Shown one piece after another: positions 3,906-59,949 of a stretch of 64,000 nucleotides of DNA. The notes under the pieces were generated by a model, which had not been told where the DNA came from, searched no databases, and saw nothing but the letters and a program-made list of their open reading frames with translations. A program made the position numbers and the translations under genes. Source of the DNA: a virus; IMG/VR virus record IMGVR_UViG_3300045988_070370, positions 1-64,000 of that record, one strand, 5' to 3'. Every line of letters starts with the position of its first letter. Positions within the stretch are counted from its first letter, which is position 1.

Positions 3906-3908
3906 AGA

Positions 3909-35600: not shown

Positions 35601-38600
35601 ATTGTACGATGAACGTTGCCATCAGCATCCTTGGTCTCCTGAATCCAGCCGTTGCCCAACTTGTCGGAGTACTGCCACTGAATGTTGGCACCCATCATCT
35701 TAGCCAGTCTCTCGAAAGCCTTGCGAGTTTTCTGCCCCACGATGTTGTCAACGACCTTCATATCATCCACCTTATTCTTCTCTACGTCGGCTGCACGCTC
35801 GGCAGTTGTCTGCTGCTTGCCATTCTCCTTAGCAGAGAAAGGAAGGTCAGATTCATCAAGTTGTTCACCCAAAGGCTTCTCATCCGTTGCATCCTCGGGA
35901 GCCTCAATAGCATTGCTACCCTCTCTTAGTGTGTCAGGGAACTTTGTCTGCTCATTTACAAAATCTCTAAACTCTTTAGCGGTAGCAGCATCATAGAACG
36001 TTGCACCTTCTGTGATTTCGCTATCTATATTAGAAGAATGATTGAGGTCACGTCCTGCATTGAACTCCTCTTGCAGTTTTCCGAGTTGCTCAACGACTTC
36101 CGCATTGTCTGGGAAATAAATCACTTGGTTTATATTCTTGCCCTCATCAGGAACAAGAGTACTAACACCAAAGCCATCTTTGCACATCAAGAACAAATCA
36201 GCGTAGCTATTTAACTTAGATGTAGGGTCTATCTCTAAGCCTTGCTTCTTTGCCCATTTTGCAAGTTCTATAATATTGTTATTAATAGGTTCTCCTTGTT
36301 TATCAATAGCTGGTAAATCTATATTCTCCTCAGCCTTTTTCTTTTCCTCTTCTGCTTTCTTCTCCAGTTCAGCCTTTTTCTTTTCTTCCTCCTCCTTAGC
36401 TTTCTGTTGCTCGTAATATGCAGCATTCTCAGCAGCAGTCCTTTCTTCTTCAATGAGTTTTTCTGCCTGAGCGATACGAATATTCTCAATAAAACTTCTT
36501 GCTTCCGAAGCCTTGAAACCGCTTGTGAGCACATCAATAAGAGCATTACGAATATCTTGTGTATCGAGAGATTCAAGGTTGGATGGACGATTATCCCACA
36601 GACTATGTACGAGTGCATCTATAGTCGTTCCTTTGCCATCAGCAGCGAGCAACTGGGTCTTGGCAAAGTCTTCTCTGCTCAATCCAGTCTCTTGCTTAAC
36701 ACCCTTGCTTGTTTCTGTTCCCTCATAGTTGAGAGAGTGAGCACCGAGGTTGCTAGCCACATACTCCTCAGCAGTAAGCGGAATGGTATCTGTCACATCA
36801 ATGCCTGTACCATCATACAGACGATGCAGCAGAGTTCCAACCGTCTCCTTATAGATTTGAGCAACAGCCTCTGCATCATCCTTCACCGCACTCTTCAAGC
36901 GAGCAAACTTTCTTCTTGCCTTCTCAATAAGATTCTTTCTGCCCTCAGCAGTATCTTCCACCTTGGCAAGTTGTCGCTCATTATAGGCATCACGGATAGC
37001 GATAGCAGAGTCATAAGCCGCCTGAGCATCAGCAATAGCCTTCTCCTTAGCATCCTTGGAAGCCTTCTGTTCTAAGAAAGTCTTACCCTTCACGGTCATG
37101 TTGTTAGCCTTGTCGAGTGCCTTCTTTGCATCAGACACATATCCAGATACGATACTATCTGCATCCTCACCAAACTGATTATCATATAGCTCAGCAGTCT
37201 GTGCGGCAGTCAGCTTCGAGAAGTCAGGATTGCCATCCTCCAGCATAGGTACGATGGTTCCATCTTCAAGGGTAATGGTAGGAGCAGCAGGAGTCTGTTC
37301 TGTTGCAGGAGTCTCAGTAGTCTCATCAGAAGGAGCAGTAGTCTCTGTATTCTCTGCTACCTCAGGAGTTGTTTCATCCTCTATTGTAGGAGATTCCACC
37401 TCTATCTCACCTCTATTCTCTCCACTATTATCCTCTATCATTGAGGAGGCAGCAAATGCTTGCTTATACTCATCGAGCGACATAGAAGAGATTGTAGCCA
37501 CATCTTCTTTGTTCACAGCATGAGGAACAATAGTACCATCACTCTTCAACTCAACTACCTTAGCCTTAGCACCAGTATCACGAATAAGGAACAACTTGGA
37601 GTCAGGGTATTTAGTGTTACCATCCTCATCAAGTACATCAACGAGCACCACGTTTCCATTATCATTAAGTATTTGATTGAAATCAAATGAAGGTTGAGTC
37701 TCTTCTGTCTCCTGAGTCTGTTGGTCTGCACGTTCCTTCTCCAACTGCTCACGCTGAGCCTTAGCAGCTTCCAGTCTCTTCTGGTCTTCCAAGTCTTTCA
37801 TCTGCTGCAAGTCTGCAAGCGAATAAGGATTCTCCACCACGTTACCATCTATAGAGACAGCAGCAGTACCATCACCATAATCAGCCAACACCTCATAGGT
37901 ATGTTCAATACCATCAGTATCAGTCACATTGAACTGAGAGCCAACCTCTACAGTTCCGTCAATGATGCCAGCAATCTCTTTGATAGCATTCTCTTTTGCA
38001 TCAGCTACCGCCTGAGCCTTCACATCATCAGCAGGAAGTTCTTCACCCAGTTCAGCAAACATCAACGCATCAGCATGTTCTACACTATTCGTTGTCGGGT
38101 CGTAGTAGAGAATCATATCATCACTATTGCTTACATCAATAGAACCATCTTCATGAGTAGCAATATTACCGCTGATAATATACACACCATAATCTTCCAA
38201 ACCGCCTGATGCTTTGATGGTAGCGTTACGAACGGAGCCACGACTTCGGTCTGTGTACATATCCACTTTCTGTGCCGCCTGATGAGCAGCTATATCAACC
38301 TTGTCTTGTGCATCATCAATCACACCTTGGTATCGGGCAGAAGACAACTGATAATCATAGATAGCTTGGTCAAGTTTATCATCCTGTCCTGTCAGGGATT
38401 CCAGTTCCTCATCACTCATGGCAGATAGCTGCTGCTCAGAGATGCCAAATGCTGCTGCAAGAGTCTTCATCTGGTCTTCCTGCTGAATCTGAATATCATG
38501 CTTGTCTGCATCATCTGCATTATGACCTTCCGTATAAGCATCATCAAGGTCGTTTGATAATGTTGGAGCAGTATCACCTTCTTCAACCTTATCTTTTGTC

Positions 38601-40747
38601 TTTGCATCTGATGCCTGATTGAATCCACGAAGTTTGCTAAGGAACATAGCATAATTGATAACTGCACCTTTTTGCTTAGCAGTCATGGAGTCTGAGCGAG
38701 TAGCATCCAAGACAGTCTTAGTCAAGTCTGCATTGGTTGACACATCAATTTTGCTTTTTATTTCGTCCCAATTATCATTAAACAACCATTGACCGAACTT
38801 GTCTGCTTTGTTGACCTGATGCTTAATCTTGAAATATTGAACTGCATTTATAGCGCCAACAGCAGTTCGAGGAGCCTGCATGAAACCAACAGAATAGAAC
38901 ATTCCAAGGCAAGTATCAATCTGCTTTTCTCTCGCATCAGGATTTGTGAAAACATTGAAGTCACTCCAGCTTCCGTCTCCATCACCCCATGCAGCATGAA
39001 GGGCAGTACCAAATTCCTCTTCGGAAATCTCAGCCATCACACCTTGTATTCCAGACTTGTTGGTTGCATTGCTCAACCATTTATAGTAAGCATTATTGCC
39101 TATCTTTTCAAAGAAGGAAGATACTTTTGAAAGACCCAACTTAGACAACAACTTAGACGCACCAGGCAGATACTCACCGAACATTTCCGAGAAGTTCTCT
39201 ATTGTAGCTGAGCCAAAGCCATCCTTGATAGCCTTACCAAGACTGACACCTTCATTGAACTTCAAATCGCCATTCTTGTCTTGGGTCACACCTCCATTCT
39301 CGTTGTTCATTCCAACATAACGTTCTATCACATTATTATATGTAGAACCAAGTTGGTTGGTAGCTGCCAATGCTGCACTACCAGTCATATCACCGAGCAT
39401 ACGACCAGTATTTTTAGTAAACCATTTGCCAAGAGCACCGAGAGCCATTTTCTCTCCAACCTTTTCTCCTGTCTTGGTGAAACCAGTGGTCATAACATTT
39501 CTCCAGCCGCTTAACGCAAAGTCTCCCATGAACTTTAAGGAGCGACCGCTCACATCTCCATACTGATAAGCCTTTGTGCCATACTGCTGCTGTTTAGCAG
39601 CTTCTCCTTGTTGCTGCTGAATAGCACCAAGCATAGCTTGTGCTGCATTTCCTGCATTGGAACCTTTCTTGATTGTTCCATCTTCCATGCCCTTCTTTAC
39701 TTGGAGCAAATTGTTTGATATAGCTGCATCCATAACACCCTGAGAATATAACTTCGGGTCAAGCATGGTATTAAACATCGCACCAAAATAATTGGAAACG
39801 TCATTCCACTTATCTTTCCACCAACCAGCATTTTCATTTCTCTGCTTTTGTTCCTTCAACTCCTGAAGCAGAGTTGTACGCAACATCTGATTGTAAGCCT
39901 TGGCGGTATTATAAGCACCATACTCTACATCAGACAAGCGGTTTGCCTCATTGCTTATAGCTGTATTAAATGAAGAAGGAGCAACTGCTCCACCAGATGC
40001 AACAAAAGGAGAACCCTGCAAGTGCATAGACTCATTCAATTCCTTAGAACGTCTGTCCTGATTCTCGTTAAGCCACTCTTGTCTTCTCTCCATTTGTCGC
40101 ATAGCAACATCTGTGTCGGACAAATCTGGGTCAGCCTTATCCAATTCAGAAGGAACAATGCCCATATCAACTGCATTGTTCCACTCTTCCCCATATTTAT
40201 CCAACTGGTTCTGATACTGGGAAGCATCATACTCGTTGTCGAACTCTACACCATCTGTTGTAGTATAGGTTCCAGTCTTGCCTGTTGTCGAATTGTAGTT
40301 GAACTCATTCTTCTGTACATTCTTATTCTGTAAAGGATTCTTGAAACCGATAGTCACCTTACCACCATTTGCATTAAACTTCTTTGCTCGCTCAACCGTC
40401 TTACGGATATTGCCAGATGCACGCTTAACTTGTCTAGCAGTATTCAGGACAGATTGTGTCACAGACAAGTAACGAGCACGGTCAGCAGCACTCATAGGTA
40501 CACTACCACCCTTCGCCCTTGATGATGTCCTACTACGAGGTACAAAGAGTGCAGAATAGAAACGCTCATAAGTAGATGGAACATCAAAGTTCTGAGCCTT
40601 CAAGTTCTCATAAATAGCGTGTCTGTTATCTGCACCGCTCTTTCCGTCTCTGGTCAGGGCACTTTCAAACTTATTGTAATCATCAGGCACATCATAGTTC
40701 TGTGCTTTCAGATTCTTGTATAAAGTGTATAATGGTCTTTCTGCCAT
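23693..40747 (-). CDS. giant polyvalent (multi-enzyme) virion cargo/ejection protein, 5,684 aa
   Basis: A single uninterrupted 17,055-nt ORF. It contains two HExxH modules, a complete C5-MTase motif set, a PPase-like module, three ART-like modules, acidic and coiled-coil linkers, and a C-terminal region with hydrophobic helices. This architecture matches the polyvalent proteins described for phages and conjugative elements (Iyer, Burroughs, Aravind and co-workers). Confidence 0.9.
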   Translation of the reverse strand: MAERPLYTLYKNLKAQNYDVPDDYNKFESALTRDGKSGADNRHAIYENLKAQNFDVPSTYERFYSALFVPRSRTSSRAKGGSVPMSAADRARYLSVTQSVLNTARQVKRASGNIRKTVERAKKFNANGGKVTIGFKNPLQNKNVQKNEFNYNSTTGKTGTYTTTDGVEFDNEYDASQYQNQLDKYGEEWNNAVDMGIVPSELDKADPDLSDTDVAMRQMERRQEWLNENQDRRSKELNESMHLQGSPFVASGGAVAPSSFNTAISNEANRLSDVEYGAYNTAKAYNQMLRTTLLQELKEQKQRNENAGWWKDKWNDVSNYFGAMFNTMLDPKLYSQGVMDAAISNNLLQVKKGMEDGTIKKGSNAGNAAQAMLGAIQQQQGEAAKQQQYGTKAYQYGDVSGRSLKFMGDFALSGWRNVMTTGFTKTGEKVGEKMALGALGKWFTKNTGRMLGDMTGSAALAATNQLGSTYNNVIERYVGMNNENGGVTQDKNGDLKFNEGVSLGKAIKDGFGSATIENFSEMFGEYLPGASKLLSKLGLSKVSSFFEKIGNNAYYKWLSNATNKSGIQGVMAEISEEEFGTALHAAWGDGDGSWSDFNVFTNPDAREKQIDTCLGMFYSVGFMQAPRTAVGAINAVQYFKIKHQVNKADKFGQWLFNDNWDEIKSKIDVSTNADLTKTVLDATRSDSMTAKQKGAVINYAMFLSKLRGFNQASDAKTKDKVEEGDTAPTLSNDLDDAYTEGHNADDADKHDIQIQQEDQMKTLAAAFGISEQQLSAMSDEELESLTGQDDKLDQAIYDYQLSSARYQGVIDDAQDKVDIAAHQAAQKVDMYTDRSRGSVRNATIKASGGLEDYGVYIISGNIATHEDGSIDVSNSDDMILYYDPTTNSVEHADALMFAELGEELPADDVKAQAVADAKENAIKEIAGIIDGTVEVGSQFNVTDTDGIEHTYEVLADYGDGTAAVSIDGNVVENPYSLADLQQMKDLEDQKRLEAAKAQREQLEKERADQQTQETEETQPSFDFNQILNDNGNVVLVDVLDEDGNTKYPDSKLFLIRDTGAKAKVVELKSDGTIVPHAVNKEDVATISSMSLDEYKQAFAASSMIEDNSGENRGEIEVESPTIEDETTPEVAENTETTAPSDETTETPATEQTPAAPTITLEDGTIVPMLEDGNPDFSKLTAAQTAELYDNQFGEDADSIVSGYVSDAKKALDKANNMTVKGKTFLEQKASKDAKEKAIADAQAAYDSAIAIRDAYNERQLAKVEDTAEGRKNLIEKARRKFARLKSAVKDDAEAVAQIYKETVGTLLHRLYDGTGIDVTDTIPLTAEEYVASNLGAHSLNYEGTETSKGVKQETGLSREDFAKTQLLAADGKGTTIDALVHSLWDNRPSNLESLDTQDIRNALIDVLTSGFKASEARSFIENIRIAQAEKLIEEERTAAENAAYYEQQKAKEEEEKKKAELEKKAEEEKKKAEENIDLPAIDKQGEPINNNIIELAKWAKKQGLEIDPTSKLNSYADLFLMCKDGFGVSTLVPDEGKNINQVIYFPDNAEVVEQLGKLQEEFNAGRDLNHSSNIDSEITEGATFYDAATAKEFRDFVNEQTKFPDTLREGSNAIEAPEDATDEKPLGEQLDESDLPFSAKENGKQQTTAERAADVEKNKVDDMKVVDNIVGQKTRKAFERLAKMMGANIQWQYSDKLGNGWIQETKDADGNVHRTIFITLDSSITEGAQFIFGHEMTHQIKSLNPAAYNELTQLVLDTYGSDAFDKAVDETMLRYSDAGFSGRARDYYAEEVVADAVGEMIRDLNLAHTLAMKMSHPLLAAIHEILQKIKLAFFGTEYSDVTKNIIRSIEQAYVKTAKGEVTNSETGEDVSFSLRQKPEPKKKGVGYKVFVLKDGKLYPPMVANPDGAATPVGVWLDADAAPIAGESKTGRPQVKQGGKGTQGGSGKLAYRPGWHLGVVPYAIQFNRKDAEGNKTLFPKNFVFAEVEYAADVDYQEEARQEGINPSGKYQHSLAGLKHLPTDGYYMYRTNPNPETDPWVITGAMKVNRILTRAEQADLVSKAGREPQQIQEGDIVTDDVVNSINQEIADAPKFSIKTYHGSQASFDKFDHSFMGSGEGAQAYGWGTYVSEVEGIAKAYAKQNAKKNAPSRLMYQDKPMTYKTPSIIYQVAFNMDKFNISAKEAISQMIDAGEKKLASVDDTPFAKMKAKQVQDELNVLKGLNPSDFKINEDYDTVAQNLADTKSGLDLLEDELKDAKSYVDLYQSRLDEAKGELSKAKESGTGLGVDMYESDVMYYSEQVEKYKQNVKTKESDIKDVKTKIDALQKKLDSIGKPRNLYSVDIPDDTGDNYIGWDEPITPKMLEAKRRVMEEDGYTMYDSDGNYDYFEKTENGKYQYWQLWNRQKGNGLYSELSKVLHSDKLASLALNKQGIVGVKVIADRTTGGNKEGKMNYVIFDENNAQITNHTKFSLRLKSAIEETETNPSDAQKESGNYKKGHIKFGGYDYTIENPKGSTRSGKDANGKEWKVTMHDTYGYIRGKFGKDGDHLDMFINDKADLDNWDGDVFVVDQVNPDGSFDEHKVMYGYDSMDDAEKAYLANYSKGWKGLGNITGVSKDEFDKWLDTSKRKLKPFKDYTKVKFSLKDNQGNPLNQDGTLKLDKIKSVDELTDEDFLHPTRNVELPSLPKKIADAIGTEGKPVVIKKNIFERNYMRHKDVTPELSKVIFKSALYNPDLYGQNQKKTRPYNWVLINTKDEKGNNRTVLLEVNPNKDNVEIVHWHFVNDKNLGLIKKQAIREGDQVLILPSEQSEEVGGLSNLTDDLSAAKIDNSSETAKENGEKFSLKDEKTLAGVHNITEEKLRKALKLGGFANPSLAVIDTNKSGHDNFGEISFIAPSALVDKRTGKTAGTWITDAYTQRYPSVERQMSEKGSQKFEDWVDSLEYPSAAKAEIKRQTKDVMEDNGVPAWELMYLKEKGIDIKAYDSRIDYRWKEIINDHPTAEDILSSMQNDPELNEKVTSLAKHAIIHPTWEKVSLEVRRKMYKETGVKASPINPQVRKQTKEIFERDYKSTLLNKDGSPRKKDVKKVVEDIVKEHNDTKKYDFYLSKVKASNYVNKNGLYDDYIRWQENKLDEFGTKNRIFRGYTKDGSRKYVPETLENVSKAMREEADGQTNGSEYTSFGSFIAKLASRVDSTDEMRANKDKLSSNEDKEAFYEKWSEVYYDLAKFLYNDVFYGEQRLHDIVLQSDPKKYAKKEYGITLTPTFMKKLDALKNAVQTELKSAYFETKYNRPLRLNEFAAAVVPDNLGEDVRKGIEDAGLPMYDYDPNKEGDRSRAFNEAINSSDNIRFSLKAEKEKIVADAKSNGTYMTAPNGEKTKLDAEQWATVRTANFKNWFGDWENDPENASKVVDENGEPMVMYHYTDESFTIFGKDKEVGKNTFGNATNASYAATTTIGHWFTSNKKQPEYMGKPMACFLNIVEPFDGYTLEGLADYLNNYISDEDFNSYEEDYENVAPIIEAGNNFREEQIRDGYDGVVIDDEEFGGTSYVAFNANQIKSAENNNGDFSADNNDIRFSLAGERGAAAADKAEERTARMDFLSVARKMEEEKKDAKAIKMATGWERGADGKWRYEMPDAKIKDTMDVGGGQIVKRYEEDMLWNGGKLSKVIDAPELFKAYPQLKDVRIETDAIMNDMPSNGEYNAKTNTITIHADELKYMNSILNHEIQHAIQSIEGFDRGGSPRLVRGEIKKRLAEVTKQIRQLRAEGKEDEAKAIVEKNRGLYNAYQANDDYNSYKSLAGEVEARNVSARINMTPEERRKTLAESTEDVARKDQIFLGVGDVSFSLRDMADGKESGAADMAEDLKSLNTPDEVDDAIKTAIDDMPSGWQMANRKMIHIAQALGENRKAEIAGEEPKFSLKDGTLIKAGTYFSGGGLVEEGLKGIIDPVVAVEYDEKISGVYRNNFGQHIVTADVRDVDPKELVKQIDGEVEYFHASPVCKNYSQAKSNHAELELDKETAASTAEFINAIKPKVVTIENVKGYKDSEAMKTITDALDANGYTWDADVYNAADYGGYTNRERLIVRAVRDGKLPDKPKKMAHKSGWYEAVADIIPTLTEKKNGVAPWMDVRLKADGIDWRNIDKPLYVMGSAYADGKIPHAFADELLPTLRTKSGDVIVMPDGKVYRAMGRVLARVSGVSDDYKMPFSENLSHTIIGNGIPTQLTEHVIAPLLTGSDPKFSIRTYHGTGASFDKFDFSHMGEGEGSQAFGWGGYVTNSKDIAEDYTRRAKIRKDNGGFEFVTDMSANNKDMVRQYIYKYKDVNKGLDAMRKDLPSALEMFPDDDDLKELSNILAKKNEEIAVPDNIAYLYDVDIPDDNGDYLDWDAPLTDKQKNTIIKELRRLKIDFDDFKKRGFSFDGSFGGNAYDFLMYALRRTKKWKDVDASRAVSKFLSSIGFTGIKYKAGNIFGGAKEGDYNYVIFDENNANIVGNTRFSLRYDQFEHDLNQWKKDNNLPKDAKRPSIPQRNAGESAVDFLRRVDDYRKQMALWKTAPTYEQHLLSDDTALGEFNRELQRGSVLKRIAFQDSMLAIRKAQEAIMKEVGVDRLNMAEDAYTAENRSHGKGKNEFEEYNNEFLQPLRKAYHQMKKVLGDSYDNVRIYMMAKHGLERDAQMAFKKSLEADYEDVAQRSAAYRAYKGDMNRMGNDSGFELGYIDFTTWRQRDNALRVKYSPSYMNYRYDKMGIAYDYSGLSALFDGSDFEEAAHKLIKDIESKYITETHNLWDATNAATKKILRDGYKAGMMSKDTYQYVRDMYSHYIPLRGWDGTTADQVWDYIGGGKGAFNQTLKTAHGRTSIADDPIAYIENMAESGILLNNKNWVKQHLMLLAQNHPTSLLTLSKAWYVKSTDANGNEEWIPATPQITSQMNSNQVKTAIDAFEKKMEQMAQTGDATQKRDGLNIAYPQTHSEEREHEVRVMKDGEEYVIYVNGDPQLAQAMNNTRAHRVREIQSGKLDRAAAWLGRKMAAAYTSLSPLFIPSNYFRDLTMTLASTAIREDGRYNYMLRKNLATSWNLGFMLRDYQNGKLREKVNNGNATPKEQMFYDFMMNGGETGFVSSLDVEDLKKKFKNDLKDLDRWKANPVKVGHTIMDGIEFLNRAIEDSNRFAVYMTSIQYGRSIDEAVNDAKDVTLNFNRKGTGEYGWQMIRNLYLFINPAVQSLQTLGALVKHHPFKFTAVTASWLASGVLVPIVNAALMSMLGGDDDKDKYWQFTKWDRRNNLIMWVPFTHEFVKIPLAQEFRAFYGLGDMIASKMMGGELAEESWSQYGEDLLGQVVDMLPLDPTGYDGNIAVSLMPNAIRPVFELAFNVDFTGKPLFKDTEYNKYDPNFTKAYVGTPDWLVRASKMVNSIGNDYPDVQQNSIDAFGDPRYNLNNPAVVDHVLSSYLGGAYTMGSQVLGVLTKSLNDPKEIKVADIPLFSKFVSNPDDRPVTKKQGDEFWDMKENHDRAANTLSKLKKQAKVDGDYSMLERFYGSEEYKQYKQDDVKVKKYEEDKKKERAEESGEEYRPHKLNAEDIYKAHATPKDDFEDLKLKQLYTKLNGFKTSYDLLVDTAPSQSDGYYNTNKAAIDAIDEISLDKQEISELKKGFLDDGKDAYNAEDMKQIRELRKKIISVLEKANKVVVANQKANAKKK
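23696..27274 (-). other. giant protein aa 4492-5684: C-terminal helical region with hydrophobic (membrane-insertion?) helices
   Basis: Contains DSNRFAVYM...AKDVTLNFNRKG and the hydrophobic stretch HHPFKFTAVTASWLASGVLVPIVNAALMSML (about nt 24985-25090). Ends in a Lys/Glu-rich coiled coil. Confidence 0.4.
27275..28048 (-). other. giant protein aa 4234-4491: ART-like module copy 3
   Basis: KFSIRTYHGTGASFDKFDFSHMGEGEGSQAFGWGGY ... YDVDIPDDNGDYLDWDAP ... DYNYVIFDENNANIVGNTRFSLR is collinear with copy 1. Confidence 0.35.
28058..28999 (-). other. giant protein aa 3917-4230: embedded DNA (cytosine-5) methyltransferase domain
   Basis: Motif I is YFSGGGL (nt 28955-28969). Motif IV variant is ASPVCKNYS (Cys3995). 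Motif VI is TIENVKGY (nt 28643-28651). Motif VIII variant is YTNRERL. Motif X is GNGIP (nt 28103-28117). Confidence 0.8.
29219..30022 (-). other. giant protein aa 3576-3843: zincin-like HExxH module 2
   Basis: GWERGADGKWRYE...AYPQLKDV...SILNHEIQHAIQSIEGF (HEIQH at nt 29576-29590, aa 3720-3724) ... SLAGEVEARNVSAR. This is a signature common in polyvalent proteins. Confidence 0.5.
30023..30712 (-). other. giant protein aa 3346-3575: ART-like module copy 2
   Basis: NFKNWFGDWEND...VVDENGEPMVMYHYTDESFTIFG ... DGYDGVVID ... TSYVAFNANQIKSAENNNGDFS...DIRFSL. The pattern matches what I recall of the ART-PolyVal family (WFGDS.VVDE.G.P.VVYHGT ... QIKSA.N.G.F). Confidence 0.4.
30713..32221 (-). other. 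giant protein aa 2843-3345: conserved-looking module of unknown function (LAGVHNITEEKLRKALKLGGFANPSLAVID...)
   Basis: About 500 aa between two KFSLK/RFSLK boundaries. No catalytic motif recognised. Confidence 0.35.
32222..32821 (-). other. giant protein aa 2643-2842: possible PBECR-type (Barnase/EndoU/RelE-fold) nuclease module
   Basis: The pattern VVIKKNIFERNYMRHKDVTPE...RTVLLEVN...NVEIVHWHF resembles phage PBECR domains. Assignment is from memory only. Confidence 0.25.
32822..33334 (-). other. giant protein aa 2472-2642: inorganic-pyrophosphatase-like module
   Basis: IENPKGSTRSGKDANGKEW...YGYIRGKFGKDGDHLDMFI...DEHKVMYGY...AEKAYLANYSK parallels the family I PPase signature (EIP.G...KYE.D...G ... 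YG(F/Y)I..T...DGDP.DVLV). Confidence 0.45.
33335..34471 (-). other. giant protein aa 2093-2471: ART-like module copy 1
   Basis: Begins KFSIKTYHGSQASFDKFD and ends MNYVIFDENNAQITNHTKFSLR. This is a paralog of aa 4234-4491. The HG[ST]...F..F start and YV.F end recall PARP/ART-PolyVal-type ADP-ribosyltransferase folds, an assignment made from motif memory only. Confidence 0.35.
34472..35122 (-). other. giant protein aa 1876-2092: module of unknown function (GYKVF..DGKLYPP ... AYRPGWH)
   Basis: Delimited by FSLR (aa 1872) and FSIK (aa 2093). No enzymatic motif recognised. Confidence 0.4.
35135..35839 (-). other. giant protein aa 1637-1871: zincin-like HExxH module 1
   Basis: FIFGHEMTHQIK (HEMTH at nt 35534-35548, aa 1734-1738), bounded by the FSAK and FSLR boundary motifs. 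Confidence 0.5.
40544..40732 (-). other. giant protein aa 6-68: tandem peptide repeat
   Basis: LYKNLKAQNYDVPDDYNKFESAL and IYENLKAQNFDVPSTYERFYSAL are two copies of a roughly 23-aa unit separated by about 14 aa. Confidence 0.7.
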
Positions 40748-45729: not shown

Positions 45730-45778
45730 GTTCTTAACATTTATCTCCCATTTTCTTGCAAGTAACAAAAAATATAAT

Positions 45779-45786
45779 TATCTTTG
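45779..45786 (+). promoter_or_regulatory. -7 promoter box TATCTTTG for integrase
   Basis: Lies 26 nt upstream of the ATG at 45813. It falls inside the longer listed ORF (45756), which argues for the downstream start. Confidence 0.5.
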
Positions 45787-45812
45787 CAGCGAAAACCATA
45801 ATAAGGAGGCTT

Positions 45813-46973
45813 ATGAAAGAAAAGAACAATTCAAAAGAACCAGTCACTATCAGATACAAGGAGTTAGCCAATGGCAACCTCAGTATCTACCTTGACATCT
45901 ACAAGGATGGCAAGAGGGCATACGAATTTCTCAAACTTTATCTCCTGCCCGAAACAGGTAAGGATAGAATGGAGCACAAGAGGAAGAACAAGGAGACCAG
46001 GGAAGTAGCCAATCTCATCAAATCACAACGCATCCTTGACATCAAGAACGGAATGGCAGGGATAGAGAGCAAAAACAAAGGAAAAATGAAACTCTCTGAC
46101 TACATAGACAAATTCATAAAATACAAGAAGGGAGTAAACCCTACCTATAATGACTCCTTCCTTAATCGAACGAAATCGCTTGTTGTAGAATACAAAGGCG
46201 ATAATGTACTTATGAAGGATATAAACAAAGAATGGTGCTTAGGCTACATTAGATTCCTGAATACAACAACCTCTCACAGAGGTAAACCGCTCGGTAAGAA
46301 CTCAATAAAGACATACTACAGATACTTTGGTTCTGTTATCATCAAGGCTGCAAAGGATGAAATCATACAGAAGAATCCTTTGGATCAGATTGAAACAGAA
46401 GAAAAGCCAAAGGCAAATGATGATGCAGGAAGGGTGTACCTGACCATAGACGAGATAAGAAAGATGGCAGAGACTGAATGCGAGAAAGAGGTCATTAAAC
46501 GTGCATTCATGTTTTCCTGTTTTTGCGGATTGCGAATATCAGACATCAGGAAGCTGAAATGGACAGATATAGAGCAGACAACAGATGGCGATGGAAATAC
46601 TCACTACCGCCTTTCAACGACCATGCAGAAGACTCAGAAGACCATCACCTACCAGTTATCCAATGAAGCTGTCAAATGGCTACCTGAAAGAAGTGAAGGC
46701 GAACTTGTGTTCGACCATCTTACCAAGAAGTCCAAGTTGAGTATGGTAGTGAAAGACTGGGCAAAGGCAGCAGGAATAGATAAGTATGTTACATTCCATA
46801 CCGCCAGACATTCTTTTGCCACAATGATGCTGACACTTGGAGCAGACATCTACACTACCAGCAAGTTACTTGGGCACTCCAAGATACAGACAACCGAGAT
46901 ATATGCTAAGATAATTGATAAGAAGAAGGATGAAGCCATGGGACTCATTGATAAGTTCTTTGATAAAGGTTAA
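45813..46973 (+). CDS. int: tyrosine recombinase / phage integrase
   Basis: Catalytic residues appear in order: GLRISDI (Arg), HTARHSFAT (His-x-x-Arg) and LGHSKIQTTEIYAKI (His...Tyr). The N-terminal arm-binding-type segment VTIRYKELANGNLSIYLDIYKDGKR is typical of Bacteroidota integrases. Confidence 0.9.
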   Translation: MKEKNNSKEPVTIRYKELANGNLSIYLDIYKDGKRAYEFLKLYLLPETGKDRMEHKRKNKETREVANLIKSQRILDIKNGMAGIESKNKGKMKLSDYIDKFIKYKKGVNPTYNDSFLNRTKSLVVEYKGDNVLMKDINKEWCLGYIRFLNTTTSHRGKPLGKNSIKTYYRYFGSVIIKAAKDEIIQKNPLDQIETEEKPKANDDAGRVYLTIDEIRKMAETECEKEVIKRAFMFSCFCGLRISDIRKLKWTDIEQTTDGDGNTHYRLSTTMQKTQKTITYQLSNEAVKWLPERSEGELVFDHLTKKSKLSMVVKDWAKAAGIDKYVTFHTARHSFATMMLTLGADIYTTSKLLGHSKIQTTEIYAKIIDKKKDEAMGLIDKFFDKG

Positions 46974-51871: not shown

Positions 51872-51949
51872 ACGCAAGTAGTTCAGTTGGTAGAACAGAA
51901 GGTTCCCCATCCTTCGATGTCGTGGGTTCGAGTCCCACCTTGCGTCCCA
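51872..51949 (+). tRNA. tRNA with 8-nt anticodon loop UUCCCCAU (isotype undetermined; CCC/Gly-like or CCCC quadruplet); CCA encoded
   Basis: Hand-folded cloverleaf. Acceptor ACGCAAG/CTTGCGT. D-arm GTTC-AGTTGGTA-GAAC. Anticodon stem GAAGG/CCTTC around TTCCCCAT (51903-51910). Variable region GATGTC. T-arm GTGGG-TTCGAGT-CCCAC. Discriminator C, then CCA. Confidence 0.8.
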
Positions 51950-54924: not shown

Positions 54925-55362
54925 ATGGAAATCCATCTTGTACGAACATCAACAGGTCTTCGTCCATACTCGGATGATGATTACGAGGAAATGAAAAAGA
55001 TAAAGGTTGGTTCCATCGTCAAGGCAAACATAGTTCGACCAAGGAACATCAAGTTTCATCGCAAATTCTTCTCCCTTATCCGTGCGGCATGGGATTGTCT
55101 TACAGAGCAGCAGCGCACCAACCTACGCTCAGTAGATACATTTCGTGAGCAACTTCTGATAACATCAGGATTCAGCGAACCGCTCTACGACCTGAACGGA
55201 CAGAAGTTCTTAGAGAGAGCAAAATCTATCTCCTTCGCCAAGATGGATGAGCCAGCCTTTAATGAAGTATATTCCAAGGTCTTAGACACCATTCTTACCA
55301 TCATGGTAGCCAATGGTGTTACAGAAGACGAGTTTAATAACATATTACAAAATTATAGTTGA
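54925..55362 (+). CDS. DUF1367-like phage protein
   Basis: RNIKFHRKFFSLIRAAW resembles the DUF1367 pattern. Assignment is from memory. Confidence 0.4.
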   Translation: MEIHLVRTSTGLRPYSDDDYEEMKKIKVGSIVKANIVRPRNIKFHRKFFSLIRAAWDCLTEQQRTNLRSVDTFREQLLITSGFSEPLYDLNGQKFLERAKSISFAKMDEPAFNEVYSKVLDTILTIMVANGVTEDEFNNILQNYS

Positions 55363-55363
55363 T

Positions 55364-56116
55364 ATGACACGTAGAAACGACAAGCGCAACAACAGACATA
55401 ATCGTCAGCGCAACAACAAAACAGAGTTATCACCATTTGCATCAATGCTTTTCGGAGCACTACTTGGCAAGGGTACGGAAATGATTGCTAAAAAAATGGC
55501 AGAAGAAGCAAAAAAGACTCCTGATATTCATGCAGAAGGCATCAACAATGAGGACATCAACAACATCAACAATGGAAATGCAACCTTATCTAAGTTGCGC
55601 ATTCCTGCTGATGGTTCGGCAGTTGAGTACCCTATCCCTGATGGTCTTTCTTTCTTCTTCAACGAAGAAGGCAAGTTGATGGTGCACAAGAAGCAGGAAC
55701 AAGAATCCGCTCCTGATACTAAGAATGGCGACCCTATTACTTACGATGATATTTGCAAGGAACTCTTCTTTGGAAAGAACGCATACTGGGTTCATTATAA
55801 CAAAATCAAGAAAGGTGTTATAAGATATTCTTATAGCGATATAGACAACTACACCAGTCTCGCTCAGGCGAAACGCACGCTTGCTTTTAACAAGTTGCAG
55901 AACATCGCCAAGTATCTCAACAAGGGATGGAAACCTGACTTTCGCAGCCCCGAAAAAAAATGGTATATCGTTAAGGGTGGAAAAAGTTACTCTCCTGTAT
56001 ATGTTCTGGCAATAAACGACGCAAACGTTTACTTCAAGAGTAAAGACCTTGCACTCGAAGCCATCCGTCTGATGGGCGAAGAATCTCTCAACGACCTTTT
56101 CTCAACTGACTGGTAA
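55364..56116 (+). CDS. hypothetical protein with basic N-terminus (250 aa)
   Basis: Start trimmed to MTRRNDKRNN (ATG 55364), directly after the upstream stop. Confidence 0.5.
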   Translation: MTRRNDKRNNRHNRQRNNKTELSPFASMLFGALLGKGTEMIAKKMAEEAKKTPDIHAEGINNEDINNINNGNATLSKLRIPADGSAVEYPIPDGLSFFFNEEGKLMVHKKQEQESAPDTKNGDPITYDDICKELFFGKNAYWVHYNKIKKGVIRYSYSDIDNYTSLAQAKRTLAFNKLQNIAKYLNKGWKPDFRSPEKKWYIVKGGKSYSPVYVLAINDANVYFKSKDLALEAIRLMGEESLNDLFSTDW

Positions 56117-56535
56117 TGACAAGTTACGCTGAAATAAAAGCAAAGTTAGAACAGGAAGGCAAGAAGATACGCAAGCGTTCATCCTATGATGAGCACAACT
56201 TGCAAGCCGCAGAGGTCAGGTATATCCGTGGGGTATATCCTGACCTTGAAGGTGTCTTCTTTGCCGTTCCGAATGGCGGCAAGCGAACCTCACGACAAGC
56301 CGCATGGCTGAAAGAAGAAGGTATGAAGGCAGGAGTTTCTGATATGCTACTCCTGAAGCGCACCTCCCAATATGGATTCCTATGTATAGAGAACAAGACT
56401 CCCAAGGGCAGGCAGGAACCAGCGCAGAGAGTATTTCAGTTTGAAGTAGAACGGCATGGTGGCAAGTATATCATCGTCCGCTCTATAGATGAATTTATGG
56501 AAGCTATCGACAATTATCTAAATGGTGAACTATGA
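56116..56535 (+). CDS. VRR-NUC family nuclease
   Basis: GVSDMLLL ... GFLCIENKT gives D...ExK. The downstream Q..F......G.. pattern is typical of VRR-NUC. Confidence 0.6.
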   Translation: MTSYAEIKAKLEQEGKKIRKRSSYDEHNLQAAEVRYIRGVYPDLEGVFFAVPNGGKRTSRQAAWLKEEGMKAGVSDMLLLKRTSQYGFLCIENKTPKGRQEPAQRVFQFEVERHGGKYIIVRSIDEFMEAIDNYLNGEL

Positions 56536-57074
56536 CAGAAGAAATCAGACAAGCCATCCAACTTCTTGAAGAAAACGGCTACAAGGTTACTGCTCCTCCC
56601 AAGGAAGTCAAAGACGAATATACCTTTGAGCGAGCATGGAACTTGTACGACAAAAAGGTAGGCTGCAAAGCCAAACTCGAAAAGAAGTGGAACTCCATGA
56701 GCCAAAAAGACCGCAAGGCAGCTATAGAGTATATTCCATTATATGTGATTGCAACCGAGGATAAAAAGTATCGCAAGAACTTCCAAACTTTCCTCAATCA
56801 GCGAGGATGGGAAGACGAACTTATCGGAGCGACACCACCGCCAGCAGTTATCAACGAGCAACCATCTGAGATAAGCCAACTTATCGCCAAAACAAGGGCA
56901 GAACAGGAGCGTAATACGGACGATGCAAAGAATCATGCCCTTCGACAACGCATCTTTGGCATGATAGAGGTTCTTGAAAAGAATCCAAAGAGCTTCTGTA
57001 AATCTCTGTTGGAGATATATCGTGAAAATGGTACGTTAGAGCGTTTGGGTATAGAATGGAATCCACAGACATAA
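56532..57074 (+). CDS. hypothetical conserved phage protein (180 aa)
   Basis: ORF with an ATGA overlap to the upstream gene. No enzymatic motif. Confidence 0.5.
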   Translation: MTEEIRQAIQLLEENGYKVTAPPKEVKDEYTFERAWNLYDKKVGCKAKLEKKWNSMSQKDRKAAIEYIPLYVIATEDKKYRKNFQTFLNQRGWEDELIGATPPPAVINEQPSEISQLIAKTRAEQERNTDDAKNHALRQRIFGMIEVLEKNPKSFCKSLLEIYRENGTLERLGIEWNPQT

Positions 57075-57079
57075 ATAAA

Positions 57080-57838
57080 ATGATAGCAATCAACAAATAC
57101 AACAAGCAGCATCCTCTAAGAGTATTCGAGGCATTCGCTGGTTATGGCAGCCAGAGTCTCGCCTTCAAGTACCTTCAAGAGAACCATCCTGAGTTTGACT
57201 TCAAGGTAGTAGGATATTCGGAGATAGAACCTTCTGCCATTCAAGCCTACAGGCTCCTGCATGGGTGGAATATTCCTAATTTCGGAGACGTGACAAGAAT
57301 TGACTGGAACGAGGTTCCCGACTTCGACTTCATCAGTTGGTCTTCTCCATGCCAAGACTTCTCAAATGCTGGTCTCAGGCAAGGTGGCGAGGAAGGGAGC
57401 GGTACACGTTCATCCCTTATCTTTCAGGAGAAGAGGATGCTGACAGTCAAGAAACCGAAATATGTAATGCTGGAGAACGTGAAAGGTCTCCTATCCGAGA
57501 AAATGAGAAAGTACTTCTTCCAATATCTCAGAGACCTCGACTCTTTCGGCTACACGTCATTTTACAAGGTTCTTAATTCTAAGGACTATGGAATACCACA
57601 GAATCGTGAACGTATCTTCGTAATCTCTATCCTAAGAACAGAAGACGAGCCGAACCCTGAGTATCATTTCCCTTCTCCTATCAAGTTAGAGACTACGGTT
57701 GAGGATATGTTAGAAGACAATGTTTCTCCCGAATATTTCATGTCCCAACAACTCCTCGAAAAGTATCTATCCAAAGCAGACATCAATGAAGCAATCCAAA
57801 AACTATACCCAGAAGATAGCGATACCGAAAACGGCTGA
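57080..57838 (+). CDS. DNA (cytosine-5) methyltransferase, N-terminal catalytic part (motifs I-VIII)
   Basis: Motif I VFEAFAGYGSQ, motif IV SSPCQDFSNAG, motif VI LENVKGL, motif VIII QNRERIF. The ORF stops at TGA 57836-57838 before any target-recognition domain. An alternative start is at 57056. Confidence 0.85.
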   Translation: MIAINKYNKQHPLRVFEAFAGYGSQSLAFKYLQENHPEFDFKVVGYSEIEPSAIQAYRLLHGWNIPNFGDVTRIDWNEVPDFDFISWSSPCQDFSNAGLRQGGEEGSGTRSSLIFQEKRMLTVKKPKYVMLENVKGLLSEKMRKYFFQYLRDLDSFGYTSFYKVLNSKDYGIPQNRERIFVISILRTEDEPNPEYHFPSPIKLETTVEDMLEDNVSPEYFMSQQLLEKYLSKADINEAIQKLYPEDSDTENG

Positions 57839-57947
57839 TGGATGCTCTGTTGCAGTTACAGCCAGTATAGGTATGTCAAGTGTAATGAACTTCATTGATA
57901 CGGCTCATTATCCGAAAGGTGGAGTTTTAATCATCAAACCAGTATGA
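57837..57947 (+). other. TRD-like segment in +1 frame, no ATG (MTase piece 2)
   Basis: The +1 frame reads DGCSVAVTASIGMSSVMNFID...GGVLIIKPV*, which is TRD-like (DG.S..(L/V)TAS). It could only join piece 1 by a +1 shift at GGC-TGA-T. Confidence 0.4.
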
Positions 57948-58081
57948 TAATATACAGAAATAAACACGGAAGTTTTAAAGGTGGTTTGTTTGAAACAAAA
58001 ATATCACCAACCATAACAATAGCATCCTTTGAACATAACACATTTATCTTAAAAATAAAAGAATGTGCGACAAAATTATAA
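57944..58081 (+). CDS. mini-ORF encoding a TRD-like unit (MTase piece 3, 45 aa)
   Basis: MIIYRNKHGSFKGGLFETKISPTITIA.... The ATG overlaps the previous TGA (GTATGA). Contains the SPT(L/I)T-type TRD hallmark. Confidence 0.45.
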   Translation: MIIYRNKHGSFKGGLFETKISPTITIASFEHNTFILKIKECATKL

Positions 58082-58224
58082 AGCTGGCAAACCTCCAAAT
58101 CAAAGGCAGAATAGAGCAGCAGACCAGAGTCTATTCCACCAAGGGAATCTCTCCTACTCTCAATTCTGCTATGGGTCACGGAGGTAACTGCATTCCACTA
58201 TTCTTAATTGTCAAAGAGATATGA
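58063..58224 (+). CDS. mini-ORF encoding a TRD-like unit (MTase piece 4, 53 aa)
   Basis: MCDKII...QTRVYSTKGISPTLNSAMGHGGNCIPLF...VKEI*. Contains the classic RVY...G.SPTL...GG motif of C5-MTase TRDs. Confidence 0.5.
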   Translation: MCDKIIKLANLQIKGRIEQQTRVYSTKGISPTLNSAMGHGGNCIPLFLIVKEI

Positions 58225-58406
58225 GAAAAGCCATCCTCTACAAGGAACGAACAGCCGATGGAAGGATGCTACGCAAAGCATACGACACTCATAAGTGCAG
58301 CTTCCACGCAAAGATGAAACATAGAACACCACGTACAGACGGACTCAGTAATACCATCACAAGTTTCTTCACTGACAACTTAGTATTAATCGTAAGCGAG
58401 ATATGA
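58221..58406 (+). CDS. mini-ORF encoding a TRD-like unit (MTase piece 5, 61 aa)
   Basis: MRKAILYKERTADGRMLRKAY...PRTDGLSNTITSF...VSEI*. It starts within GAGATATGA, and the same 9-mer forms the next junction. Confidence 0.5.
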   Translation: MRKAILYKERTADGRMLRKAYDTHKCSFHAKMKHRTPRTDGLSNTITSFFTDNLVLIVSEI

Positions 58407-58855
58407 TAACTGGAGGAAAACGTATGAAATCCCTACTCCTATCAGGGAAGGTCAAGCCTGATATGGGGGGGCAAGTCTTAGACCTCTATAACCAGCAAGT
58501 CTATGACAATATTGCTCCAACAATGCTAACAACCATTGATTCTTCATCAATGACATTCGTAACCATCATGAACAAAGAAATCATTCACACCGCTCCCAAC
58601 GGCAAGAAATACTCCATCCAAATCAGGAAGTACACTCCAAGAGATTGTTTCCGCCTGATGGGAGTGCATGAAGCTGACATAGATAAACTCCTGAGCAAGG
58701 AGAAGTCTGGTCAACTCATTATCTGTAAGAGCAAACTCTACGCACTTGCAGGAAACTCAATAGTCACCAACTGCCTGACTGCCATGTTCGAGGAACTGAT
58801 ATTTCCATCAGGGAATCACTATCACGACAAGAGCGGTCAGCTTTCACTCTTTTAG
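58403..58855 (+). CDS. DNA (cytosine-5) methyltransferase, C-terminal part (TRD plus motifs IX-X)
   Basis: A fifth TRD hallmark is NIAPTMLTT. RKYTPRDCFRLMGV corresponds to motif IX and YALAGNSIVTNC to motif X. Contains a G7 tract at 58465-58471. Confidence 0.8.
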   Translation: MITGGKRMKSLLLSGKVKPDMGGQVLDLYNQQVYDNIAPTMLTTIDSSSMTFVTIMNKEIIHTAPNGKKYSIQIRKYTPRDCFRLMGVHEADIDKLLSKEKSGQLIICKSKLYALAGNSIVTNCLTAMFEELIFPSGNHYHDKSGQLSLF

Positions 58856-58858
58856 CTT

Positions 58859-59116
58859 ATGAATAATTTCGGATATATCAAGATAGGCAAGCGCATCAGC
58901 AAAGCGCACAAAGCCCTCTTTACCCACAAGACCATGGTACTATGGTACAAAGGCAACCCAATCATCGGGACAATGCACGATGATTTGTGGTACCAACAAG
59001 ACATGAACGGAAAATTGGAGCAATTAATGTTCCAGCAACAAGTAACTCACGTATCATTCTTACCATCCCCACCAAATGAAGACAGAAAAAGAACAAATCT
59101 TAGCCATCATCGCTGA
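58859..59116 (+). CDS. hypothetical protein (85 aa)
   Basis: ORF in the early-gene array. Confidence 0.45.
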   Translation: MNNFGYIKIGKRISKAHKALFTHKTMVLWYKGNPIIGTMHDDLWYQQDMNGKLEQLMFQQQVTHVSFLPSPPNEDRKRTNLSHHR

Positions 59117-59288
59117 GATTCAGGAAGAGCGTAAGGCAGCGCATATCGTGCCAAATCATGTTCTTGCCAAAGAAATCATCAACCGAGGATTCCATCAGCC
59201 GCAGCAAGCCCTCAACGAATTATGCGCAGAAGGCAAGATAGACTGGTGCAGAACCCTCAACGATATAGCATTCACTATCAGGTCATAG
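59076..59288 (+). CDS. hypothetical protein (70 aa)
   Basis: ORF that overlaps the previous one by 41 nt. Confidence 0.4.
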   Translation: MKTEKEQILAIIAEIQEERKAAHIVPNHVLAKEIINRGFHQPQQALNELCAEGKIDWCRTLNDIAFTIRS

Positions 59289-59343
59289 CAAAGCTATGTG
59301 GATTGAAACAAATACTATCAGAAATTTATAAATCAAAAACAAT

Positions 59344-59949
59344 ATGGAAGAAAAGTTAGAAATAATCACAAAGGAAGACTTGGAGGTATTATCTAAGCAA
59401 GCCTACGAGTCAGCAAAGGATAAGGGCTTCTACCCTGGTATTAGTACTACATTTCACCTGATGTTCATTATCGTAGAAATGGGTGAAGTGCTGCAAGCGG
59501 ACAGAAAAGATAGACATGGCTCCATCGAAGACTACGAAAGCGAAATTGAAATTGGCAGGGATATTCCTACCGCCTACAAAAACACGCTTGAAGGTACAGT
59601 AGAGTCTGAGTTTGCCGACATCGCTATTCGTATTCTCTCGCTCTTGGGTAGCATCATATCAAGCGAGAAAATCGAACTAACAGAAGACGAAGACCTGACA
59701 GACGAATACAAATTGGCTAAATTTATCTTTGGGTTTGATTTAGTCGAAGACCTATACAGACTCATCGAAAAGATAGGAGTCTGTGACTTGGATGATTCTC
59801 CAAACTGGTATCTCGTCAAGCATTTACAAGAAATACTGATGGATATTTTTGCGATTGCCCATAGTAACAATATCAACCTGATGGAGCACATCAAACTGAA
59901 AATGAAGTACAACGAAACTCGTCCGTATCTACACGGATATAAATATTAG
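59344..59949 (+). CDS. MazG-like all-alpha nucleoside triphosphate pyrophosphohydrolase
   Basis: The paired acidic helices IIVEMGEVLQADRK and ESEFADIAIRILSL match the MazG E..E / E..D pattern. Confidence 0.55.
   Translation: MEEKLEIITKEDLEVLSKQAYESAKDKGFYPGISTTFHLMFIIVEMGEVLQADRKDRHGSIEDYESEIEIGRDIPTAYKNTLEGTVESEFADIAIRILSLLGSIISSEKIELTEDEDLTDEYKLAKFIFGFDLVEDLYRLIEKIGVCDLDDSPNWYLVKHLQEILMDIFAIAHSNNINLMEHIKLKMKYNETRPYLHGYKY

Follow-up and report, generated by a model that had tools for sequence, protein, structure and literature searches.

The stretch of 64,000 nucleotides (nt) analysed here, in the following the window, comprises positions 1 to 64,000 of IMG/VR virus record IMGVR_UViG_3300045988_070370 and carries on its plus strand, at 57056-58855, a predicted C5-cytosine DNA methyltransferase (C5-MTase) that is spread over six consecutive open reading frames (ORFs) lying in frames 2, 0, 2, 1, 0 and 2. 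Based on our findings the locus is probably a multispecific C5-MTase of a temperate Segatella copri phage, organised as an operon of separate cistrons, i.e. an N-terminal piece (N), target recognition domain (TRD) subunits of 45-61 amino acids (aa) and a C-terminal piece (C). An earlier note, made from the letters of the window alone, had proposed such a split enzyme in six pieces. Reading the sequence from 56800 to 59100 together with the ORF listing recovered all six ORFs (Table 1), and the interpretation as a split MTase is supported by frame breaks that persist in relatives and by pieces that are intact and constrained. The observation is real and no artefact.

The N-half contains the C5-MTase motifs I, IV, VI and VIII and matches the Pfam family PF00145 with E=3.7e-53 (profile positions 2-227 of 324). 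It ends ~55 aa past motif VIII; most relatives start at its second ATG (57080, MIAI..), and its final 18 codons, which run into the first TRD unit, u1, form a tail without constraint. Motifs IX and X are found in the C-half, which carries IRKYTPRDCFRLMG and AGNSIV and whose assignment draws on a weak Pfam score (PF00145 profile positions 253-322, E=0.0046, under the gathering score), on colinearity with M.HhaI and on a fold match. The mini-ORFs alone gave no Pfam match, Pfam having no TRD models. A synthetic chain of N(1-234), u3 and the C core is colinear with residues 12-287 of M.HhaI (alignment E=2.5e-30), and its u3 part coincides with the recognition loops of M.HhaI and the T-L dipeptide ('GKGGQGERIYSTRGIAITLSAYGGG' vs 'KGRIEQQTRVYSTKGISPTLNSAMGHGG'). 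With a 104-sequence alignment AlphaFold2 (AF2) modelled N, u3 and the C core at a predicted local distance difference test score (pLDDT) of 87.6 and a predicted template modelling score (pTM) of 0.88, the u3 segment reaching pLDDT 50-90; a prediction of the synthetic N+u3+C made without an alignment (pLDDT 34.5) was unusable. Foldseek returned M.HhaI structures as the top PDB matches of the AF2 model, with template modelling (TM) scores of 0.77-0.80 normalised to the target. By alignment and predicted fold, the pieces taken together are shown to amount to a complete M.HhaI-like enzyme.

The spacer between the two halves encodes TRD units, as the earlier note had claimed: u3 aligns to the M.HhaI TRD, and u1, u2, u4 and u5 match the variable regions of multi-TRD enzymes. 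Relatives were sought among 1.84 billion representative proteins, and those at ≤52% identity are mostly continuous proteins of 330-865 aa, some of them (P0123, P0129, P0146, P0155, P0159, P0139 and P0124) visibly single-chain multi-TRD enzymes; the continuous multi-TRD relatives span 418-777 aa. Compared by blastp with continuous relatives that are at least 380 aa long, each of the units u1, u1b, uX, u2, u3, u4 and u5 matches part of their variable regions, e.g. u1 the last TRD of P0161 and P0192, u2 the 'SPTITTSSFEHNNF'-type TRDs of P0124, P0123 and P0206, and u4 residues 433-485 of P0139 (E=1e-7) as well as P0124, P0159 and P0234. The TRD modules of the continuous relatives end in '..L(V/I)xEP', and the stops of the split form lie at exactly those boundaries. 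Five tandem TRD units that match continuous relatives or M.HhaI are thus located between motifs VIII and IX. The 'SVAVTAS' unit of the earlier note stands as the window's allele of u1, but it is one allele of two, the second, u1b, reading 'SPTITSS'.

Table 1. Features of the methyltransferase locus in the window and selection estimates for its pieces (pN/pS, pooled ratio of nonsynonymous to synonymous polymorphism)
Feature	Position	Strand	Description	pN/pS, own frame
N-half (N subunit)	57056-57838	+	260 aa, frame 2; C5-MTase motifs I-VIII and hinge	
N-half motif I	57125-57154	+	FAGYGS	
N-half motif IV	57341-57364	+	SSPCQDFS (PCQ, catalytic Cys)	
N-half motif VI	57470-57490	+	ENVKGL (ENV)	
N-half motif VIII	57599-57619	+	QNRERIF (QNRER)	
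N core				0.08
u1, TRD mini-cistron 1	57786-57947	+	53 aa from ATG 57786; frame 0; ORF open from 57720	0.25
Junction repeat copy 1	57922-57950	+	u1 end/u2 start; ..VLIIKPV-stop overlapping ATG	
u2, TRD mini-cistron 2	57944-58081	+	45 aa, frame 2; ATG overlaps u1 stop (GTATGA)	0.14
u3, TRD mini-cistron 3	58063-58224	+	53 aa, frame 1; M.HhaI-type	0.09
Junction repeat copy 2	58199-58227	+	u3 end/u4 start; repeat search	
u4, TRD mini-cistron 4	58221-58406	+	61 aa, frame 0; '..PRTDGxSNTITs..DNL' type	0.13
Junction repeat copy 3	58381-58409	+	u4 end/C start; repeat search	
C-half (C subunit)	58403-58855	+	150 aa, frame 2; fifth TRD (u5), then C core	
u5, fifth TRD in C-half	58403-58549	+	IAPTMLTT at 58511-58534	0.19
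G7 homopolymer	58465-58471	+	C subunit codons 21-23, in frame; candidate slipped-strand ON/OFF switch	
C core				0.07
C-core motif IX	58622-58666	+		
C-core motif X	58745-58765	+		

Conservation, selection and junctions of the separate frames

The arrangement N, TRDs and C in differing frames recurs in ~90 related phage and prophage loci. The sample comprises 80 IMG/VR loci, 3 GTDB genomes and further ENA/Logan contigs, and 88 complete loci were used for the architecture. N-half homologs of 98% down to ~51% identity are mostly 244-260 aa long and end at the same place, as do homologs of ~250 aa down to 47% identity, and their clusters reach 945 and 2181 member sequences. The same plan is found in lineages whose N-halves are 70% (L085), 60% (L082), 57% (L083), 55% (L091) and 47% (L090) identical; the array of L083 extends to ~14 TRD mini-ORFs across 2.1 kb. 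It is also present in a cultured isolate, Segatella copri HDE04 (GTDB), whose complete chromosome (NZ_CP152346.1, ~1.448-1.456 Mb) has it in a prophage as N of 252 aa, u1 of 53 aa, u3b of 53 aa and C, which identifies Segatella (Prevotella) copri as the host. The pieces are intact in their own frames in nearly all loci that carry them: the N core in 81/83, u1 (from ATG 57786) in 41/44, u2 in 16/17, u3 in 79/79, u4 in 10/11 and the C core in 79/81. If the frame breaks were decay or sequencing errors, relatives with one continuous ORF would be expected; the N-half ORF extends past the usual stop in just 3 of the 88 complete loci, in agreement with the earlier note. N is joined to C without a TRD in L009 and to u3 in L075, and in L014 there is read-through into u3 via an out-of-frame u1. 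The L009 form (= P0005, 329 aa, 12 contigs), which recurs in several samples, arose by a deletion that fuses the N-half (..INEAIQK) to motif IX (SIQIRKYTPRDC..), and could be either a dead enzyme or a form with relaxed specificity.

At least 1000 public contigs encode the exact 53-aa u3 peptide, 218 the exact u4 peptide and 93 the C-half, and all the mini-peptides are named 'hypothetical protein' in public records. A near-identity search of 56500-59500 against GenBank phages gave no match, and neither did tblastn of u4 and u1 against GenBank phages, for which the queries are too short and in which this phage group is absent.

Selection was assessed by pooled Nei-Gojobori estimates over the loci (Table 1). 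In alternative frames pN/pS ranges from 0.57 to 8.5, and variable sites lie mostly at third codon positions; by this measure every piece is shown to be under purifying selection in its own frame. In the 54 nt ahead of the N stop (57782-57835), where N and u1 overlap, pN/pS is 0.22 in the u1 frame and 0.77 in the N frame. Thus, the u1 frame is constrained and the N frame is not, and the N-terminus of u1, rather than the tail of the N-half, would be the selected product.

In 23 loci C is short (~95 aa, without u5 or any other TRD) and the N piece likewise lacks a TRD. In these loci the N core is intact in 22/23, u3 in 23/23 and the C core in 22/23, with pN/pS of 0.10, 0.15 and 0.09, respectively. 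As neither core carries a TRD and N, u3 and C are nevertheless constrained, at least three polypeptides would have to cooperate if the enzyme works.

The junctions are organised in a way that points to separate translation. From its ATG at 57786, u1 overlaps the N ORF by 53 nt in the +1 frame, and a further in-frame ATG is located at 57720; a +1 shift at GGC-TGA-T, which the earlier note had invoked for a first junction lacking an ATG, is therefore unnecessary. The ATGA junctions it had described are found at u1/u2, u3/u4 and u4/C. The u2/u3 junction is not an ATGA; here the two ORFs overlap by 19 nt, from the u3 ATG to the u2 stop. The strings GTATGA (57942-57947) and GAGATATGA (58216-58224 and 58398-58406), the latter containing the overlaps of the u4 ATG with the u3 stop and of the C-half ATG with the u4 stop, match the sequence exactly and are parts of a 29-nt junction repeat that is present in the window in three copies of 66-76% identity. 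The repeated 9-mer by itself is without significance in 1.8 kb; rather, it is the same frame structure in ~90 loci, together with codon-position-specific conservation, that places the structure of the locus beyond chance.

In the large majority of the junctions measured across the loci (258), the ATG of the next piece overlaps the preceding ORF, the overlap being 4 nt (ATGA) in 110, 53 nt in 74, 1 nt in 58 and 19 nt in 16; the 74 junctions share the 53-nt offset of the u1-type ATG with the window's ATG at 57786. Units typically start with M-(K/R)-x-(K/R), and in L083 the junction reads TATGAAnnnTAA, the next ATG lying inside Tyr-Glu codons. That a Met is kept at every module start points to separate translation, as a continuous protein would have no reason for it. 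The stop codon at the same junction differs between loci (TGA, TAG or TAA for u1). Unit ends are homogenised within each genome and are lineage-specific, i.e. ..LI(I/V)Kxx-stop here, ..EIREL-stop in L085 and ..VYET-stop in L083. This bears out the suggestion that a unit was duplicated together with its junction, and fits a docking partner shared by the units or gene conversion at the junction. A promoter and terminator scan of 56400-59400 gave counts no higher than in shuffled sequences, i.e. no internal signals.

Homopolymer tracts and cassette exchange

Apart from the G7 tract within u5, the 64-kb window has no G or C run of 6 or more. At this site relatives have G6, G7 or G8, which leaves u5 in frame in 12 and out of frame in 8 of them, and all five u5 frameshifts found are located at the tract. 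Taking the loci together, the 53.8 kb of arrays contain 52 G/C runs of at least 7 and the 679 kb of flanks 2, which makes such runs 328-fold denser in the arrays, whereas A/T runs are little enriched (~1.7-fold by density). A second variable tract lies at the end of u1b (the 'FPKGG' site), where its length decides between the normal end '..GGVLIIKKL-stop', a truncation 'GGY-stop' and a u1b-uX fusion. Tract lengths differ even between loci with identical flanks, and in L085, L083 and L091 G or C runs of 7-10 are found a few codons into several units. As in simple-sequence contingency loci, the tracts lie in coding regions, and their length differs between loci and sets the frame; the pattern points to slipped-strand mispairing and to phase-variable TRDs.

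L091 is a different type of phage, with Sipho_Gp157, SSB and dUTPase genes as neighbours and an N-half that is 55% identical. At 3733-4277 of this locus five G7-G9 tracts are found in ~550 nt, all of them at Gly-Gly-Gly loops within TRDs and at changes of frame, and a sixth run (G9) is located upstream at 2448. The longest homopolymer of the window is an A8 run at 55953-55960, in an ORF (55313-56116, 267 aa) with no family match.

The TRD array is a mosaic, with at least 35 architectures in the 88 complete loci but a constant order: N, u1 or u1b, (uX), (HNH), (u2), u3 or u3b, (u4) and (u5-)C, brackets marking optional parts. The full unit set of the window is unique in this sample, and u2 is a cassette present in just 17 loci. 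Eight loci (L023, L034, L052, L054, L057, L058, L063 and L087) contain a NUMOD4/HNH homing endonuclease ORF of 124 aa in the array (NUMOD4 E=1e-11, HNH_3 weak), which follows u1 at a distance of ~370 nt and itself ends with a TRD-unit junction (..VLIIKxx-stop, here '..VLIIKRVS-stop'); between the pieces of the window's array no endonuclease ORF is found. A homing endonuclease that cuts at the junction repeat may drive cassette exchange. u3 DNA is 94-99% identical in phages whose N-halves (57080-57781) are just 82-86% identical, and the array shows less synonymous divergence (pS, 0.13-0.23) than the N core (0.37). Both point to a recent spread of cassettes between phages by recombination.

Mechanism and rival explanations

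In the mechanism that we consider, the cistrons would be translated in succession by termination-reinitiation coupling. A TRD subunit would dock non-covalently with the C piece, which contributes motif IX, to form the small domain, and this would combine with the N piece to give an active enzyme by fragment complementation, as in M.AquI. Alternative TRDs would compete for one core, so that a single core might methylate several sequences and the phage DNA would be protected from several host restriction systems. By virtue of the splitting a phage could acquire, lose or swap each specificity at the repeated junction, and slippage at a homopolymer could toggle one specificity and leave motifs IX-X unharmed. 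For the broader formulation, i.e. C5-MTase holoenzymes with free, exchangeable TRD 'specificity subunits' that are encoded by up to ~14 coupled, poly-G/C-toggled mini-genes and would confer a combinatorial, phase-variable anti-restriction methylome, we see even chances.

Several points weigh against an enzyme with free TRD subunits. We know of no C5-MTase that uses a free TRD without motif IX, and a peptide of 45-61 aa may be unable to fold or dock alone. That the mini-proteins are produced and dock in trans is what we infer from sequence comparison; the AF2 model is one artificial chain, uninformative on non-covalent assembly, with a pLDDT of just 50-90 in u3. The pN/pS values were pooled from pairwise comparisons of related sequences that recombine and are not tree-based tests, and the constraint could partly come from exchange with continuous genes elsewhere. 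Many of the sampled loci derive from a single IMG dataset (3300045988), and differences in homopolymer length could partly be assembly errors. Moreover, separation is not absolute, as units are fused (u1b-uX, u1-u3, N-u3) or broken in some relatives.

The main rival, which we regard as unlikely, is a two-piece enzyme of N and u5-C in the style of M.AquI, with u1-u4 as an untranslated reserve of TRDs that would become active only after an indel or recombination has joined them to N or C and that periodic use would keep intact. In the window N and u5-C could suffice, u5 being the only TRD in frame with motifs IX-X, although four additional constrained cistrons lie between them. Rare variants that fuse N to u3 or u1 by indels at different positions, the lack of an own ATG of uX in 27 loci, where uX is reached only by a poly-G frame change, and the exchange suggested by mosaicism and by the lower pS of the array would all fit silent cassettes. 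However, a reserve of this kind leaves the ATG overlapping the upstream stop in nearly every unit unexplained, and there is no homopolymer at the u3/u4 and u4/C junctions that could toggle them. u3 is fused to C in 0/79 loci, yet it is the best conserved piece, and in the 23 loci in which neither C nor N bears a TRD, selection still acts on N, u3 and C. In addition, all cassettes are direct repeats, so that recombination would only delete them.

The other rivals are minor. Translational recoding, by which frame shifts at junctions or G runs would yield one long polypeptide as in the SPR/phi3T enzymes, possibly helped by a phage tRNA with a CCCC anticodon, appears quite improbable to us. It would be in line with the continuous relatives, which demonstrate that a single chain works, with the window's only tRNA, whose loop UUCCCCAU could read GGGG as a quadruplet, and with the G8 allele of u5, which needs exactly a +1 shift and is combined with this tRNA in L002 and L004. 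Yet the ATGA junctions would require a -1 and not a +1 shift, no window junction contains a slippery heptamer, an Rfam search of 56900-59000 detected no RNA element, and no GGGG site bridges two long ORFs in the window. The conserved ATGs would be superfluous, and the variable identity of the u1 stop argues in the same direction. Moreover, L082/L236 combines G8 with a tRNA-like gene that has a different, 10-nt loop, and phages with a UAUG, CUUC or normal CAU tRNA loop have poly-G arrays as well. The peptides might also be made for a purpose other than recognition, e.g. as regulators or inhibitors of N+C or of host enzymes, given that they are small, conserved and annotated as hypothetical throughout and that their TRD role is predicted; we rate this as very improbable, since they keep full TRD signatures, including the T-L dipeptide and HhaI-type recognition loops, and since the conserved core of the C-short loci would be left without any TRD. 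A decaying pseudogene or a sequencing or assembly artefact of an ordinary multispecific MTase, finally, is hardly credible. Several frame breaks in 1.8 kb, additional frameshifts or in-frame stops in relatives (L088 u5, L005 u4, L055 u2) and the loss of all TRDs in L009 might be read in this way, but the same breaks recur in ~90 loci from IMG/VR, ENA, Logan, NCBI and a complete isolate genome and are kept down to 47% N-half identity, with strong purifying selection in the own frames and near-universal intactness.

Further candidates were tried and rejected. Stop-codon reassignment is ruled out, as the frames differ among units and the stop codon varies at the same junction, and so is ribosome hopping of the T4 gene 60 type between the two GAGATATGA copies, as landing on ATA again precedes TGA. 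The tRNA gene mentioned above (51872-51949, plus strand; Rfam tRNA 52 bits, E=3e-10) has an anticodon loop of 8 nt and thereby a four-base anticodon, CCCC, which we take to be the design of the classical sufD +1 frameshift-suppressor tRNA-Gly. In 63 related phage contigs with the same tRNA body the 8-nt loop is UUUAUGAG (33 contigs), UUCCCCAU (16) or UUCUUCCC (9), more rarely UUCAUGAG (3), UUCCCUAU (1) or UUUCUCCC (1), and 7-nt CAU loops or 10-nt loops are found in further relatives; the loci surveyed include L092-L130, L174-L234 and L236 (5191-5270). The phage tRNA thus combines a conserved body with an expanded, hypervariable anticodon loop, and a literature search found no paper describing such expanded-loop phage tRNAs. 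That the expanded-loop tRNA, with CCCC in the window, reads G tracts as quadruplets would be a weaker extension of the separate-cistron enzyme; a link between the CCCC tRNA and the G tracts is possible but unsupported, given the missing bridging GGGG site and the presence of G8 alleles next to a non-CCCC tRNA-like gene.

Relation to known systems and phage context

Full-text literature searches for TRD mini-cistrons returned nothing beyond multispecific enzymes of a single chain and M.AquI and M.EcoHK31I, which have two chains, in accordance with the earlier note, which had considered the arrangement undescribed. The closest counterparts are M.SPRI, M.phi3TI, M.rho11sI and M.H2I of temperate Bacillus phages, which like our locus are phage-borne orphan C5-MTases with one core and tandem TRDs of ~40-60 aa between motifs VIII and IX, and which, like it, presumably evade several host restriction systems; the likeness extends to the locus' own family with its continuous multi-TRD members (P0123-P0159). 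A 2025 review describes the multispecific Bacillus phage enzymes as arraying their TRDs 'in a single polypeptide' (PMC12707154). In our locus core and TRDs do not form one polypeptide, and the breaks are kept in nearly all 88 complete loci: the TRDs are cistrons with their own start and stop, in frames differing from those of their neighbours, and the family has arrays of up to ~14 units with poly-G/C tracts inside units.

M.AquI is split in the variable region, with motifs I-VIII on the α piece, the distal variable region and motifs IX-X on the β piece, and overlapping ORFs (PMC3404938). The N-half and the C-half of the window match this layout, but M.AquI consists of two pieces with one specificity whereas the window has six pieces, and in the 23 relatives with a TRD-less β-like piece a third polypeptide would be required. 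According to the same source M.HhaI, M.BspRI, M.BsuRI and M.SssI allow fragment complementation when cut in the variable region, and a small separate peptide is essential to the C5-MTase M.EcoHK31I (PMC3404938). Unlike the mini-proteins of our locus, this peptide carries motif IX and not a TRD, and there is one specificity and no array. It is reportedly encoded in an overlapping frame (Lee et al. 1995).

The HsdS subunits and phasevarions resemble the locus in that recognition resides on a separate, exchangeable subunit and in that the specificity changes through simple-sequence tracts or the exchange of cassettes, and the HsdS genes of Type I restriction-modification systems are translationally coupled (PMC3510504). 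HsdS and Mod systems, however, are N6-adenine enzymes (γ/β MTases), an unrelated class, and switching of our C5-MTase would follow from tract-length polymorphism. Genes in pieces are also created by the insertion of homing endonucleases, as in nrdA of phage Aeh1 and gene 39/60 of T4. The 8 relatives that carry the NUMOD4/HNH ORF as a cassette with a ..VLIIKxx-stop junction resemble these cases, but the window's array has no endonuclease and is split at every module boundary regardless.

If the TRD mini-proteins act in trans, recognition by a C5-MTase would be fully separable from catalysis, a separation that to our knowledge has so far been found only in Type I and some Type II/III adenine enzymes. 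The locus would help to explain how S. copri phages could cope with varied host restriction systems, and would represent a phage-borne contingency locus of a new kind and a natural design for programmable 5-methylcytosine writers in which one core is combined with interchangeable peptides of ~50 aa. The placement of the homopolymers suggests a rationale for the splitting, as a frameshift would silence one specificity and motifs IX-X would be kept. For annotation it is relevant that the N-halves resemble truncated methylases, so that pipelines and indel-correction tools will misread such loci as broken genes.

The element itself is a temperate tailed phage with an integrase (45756-46973), a portal protein and a large terminase subunit. 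The methylase operon is situated in the recombination/replication module, after a PD-(D/E)XK nuclease, DUF3127, DUF1367 and a VRR-NUC nuclease. As the scan of neighbouring ORFs showed no restriction gene, the predicted C5-MTase appears to be an orphan and presumably serves anti-restriction. On the minus strand, at 23693-40747, the window encodes a polyvalent protein of 5684 aa with two ART-PolyVal domains, LPD13, LPD23, LPD38, InPase and a PBECR5 nuclease domain. This protein also holds a complete, continuous C5 DNA_methylase domain (PF00145, E=1.5e-28), and the phage thus carries a second cytosine methyltransferase.

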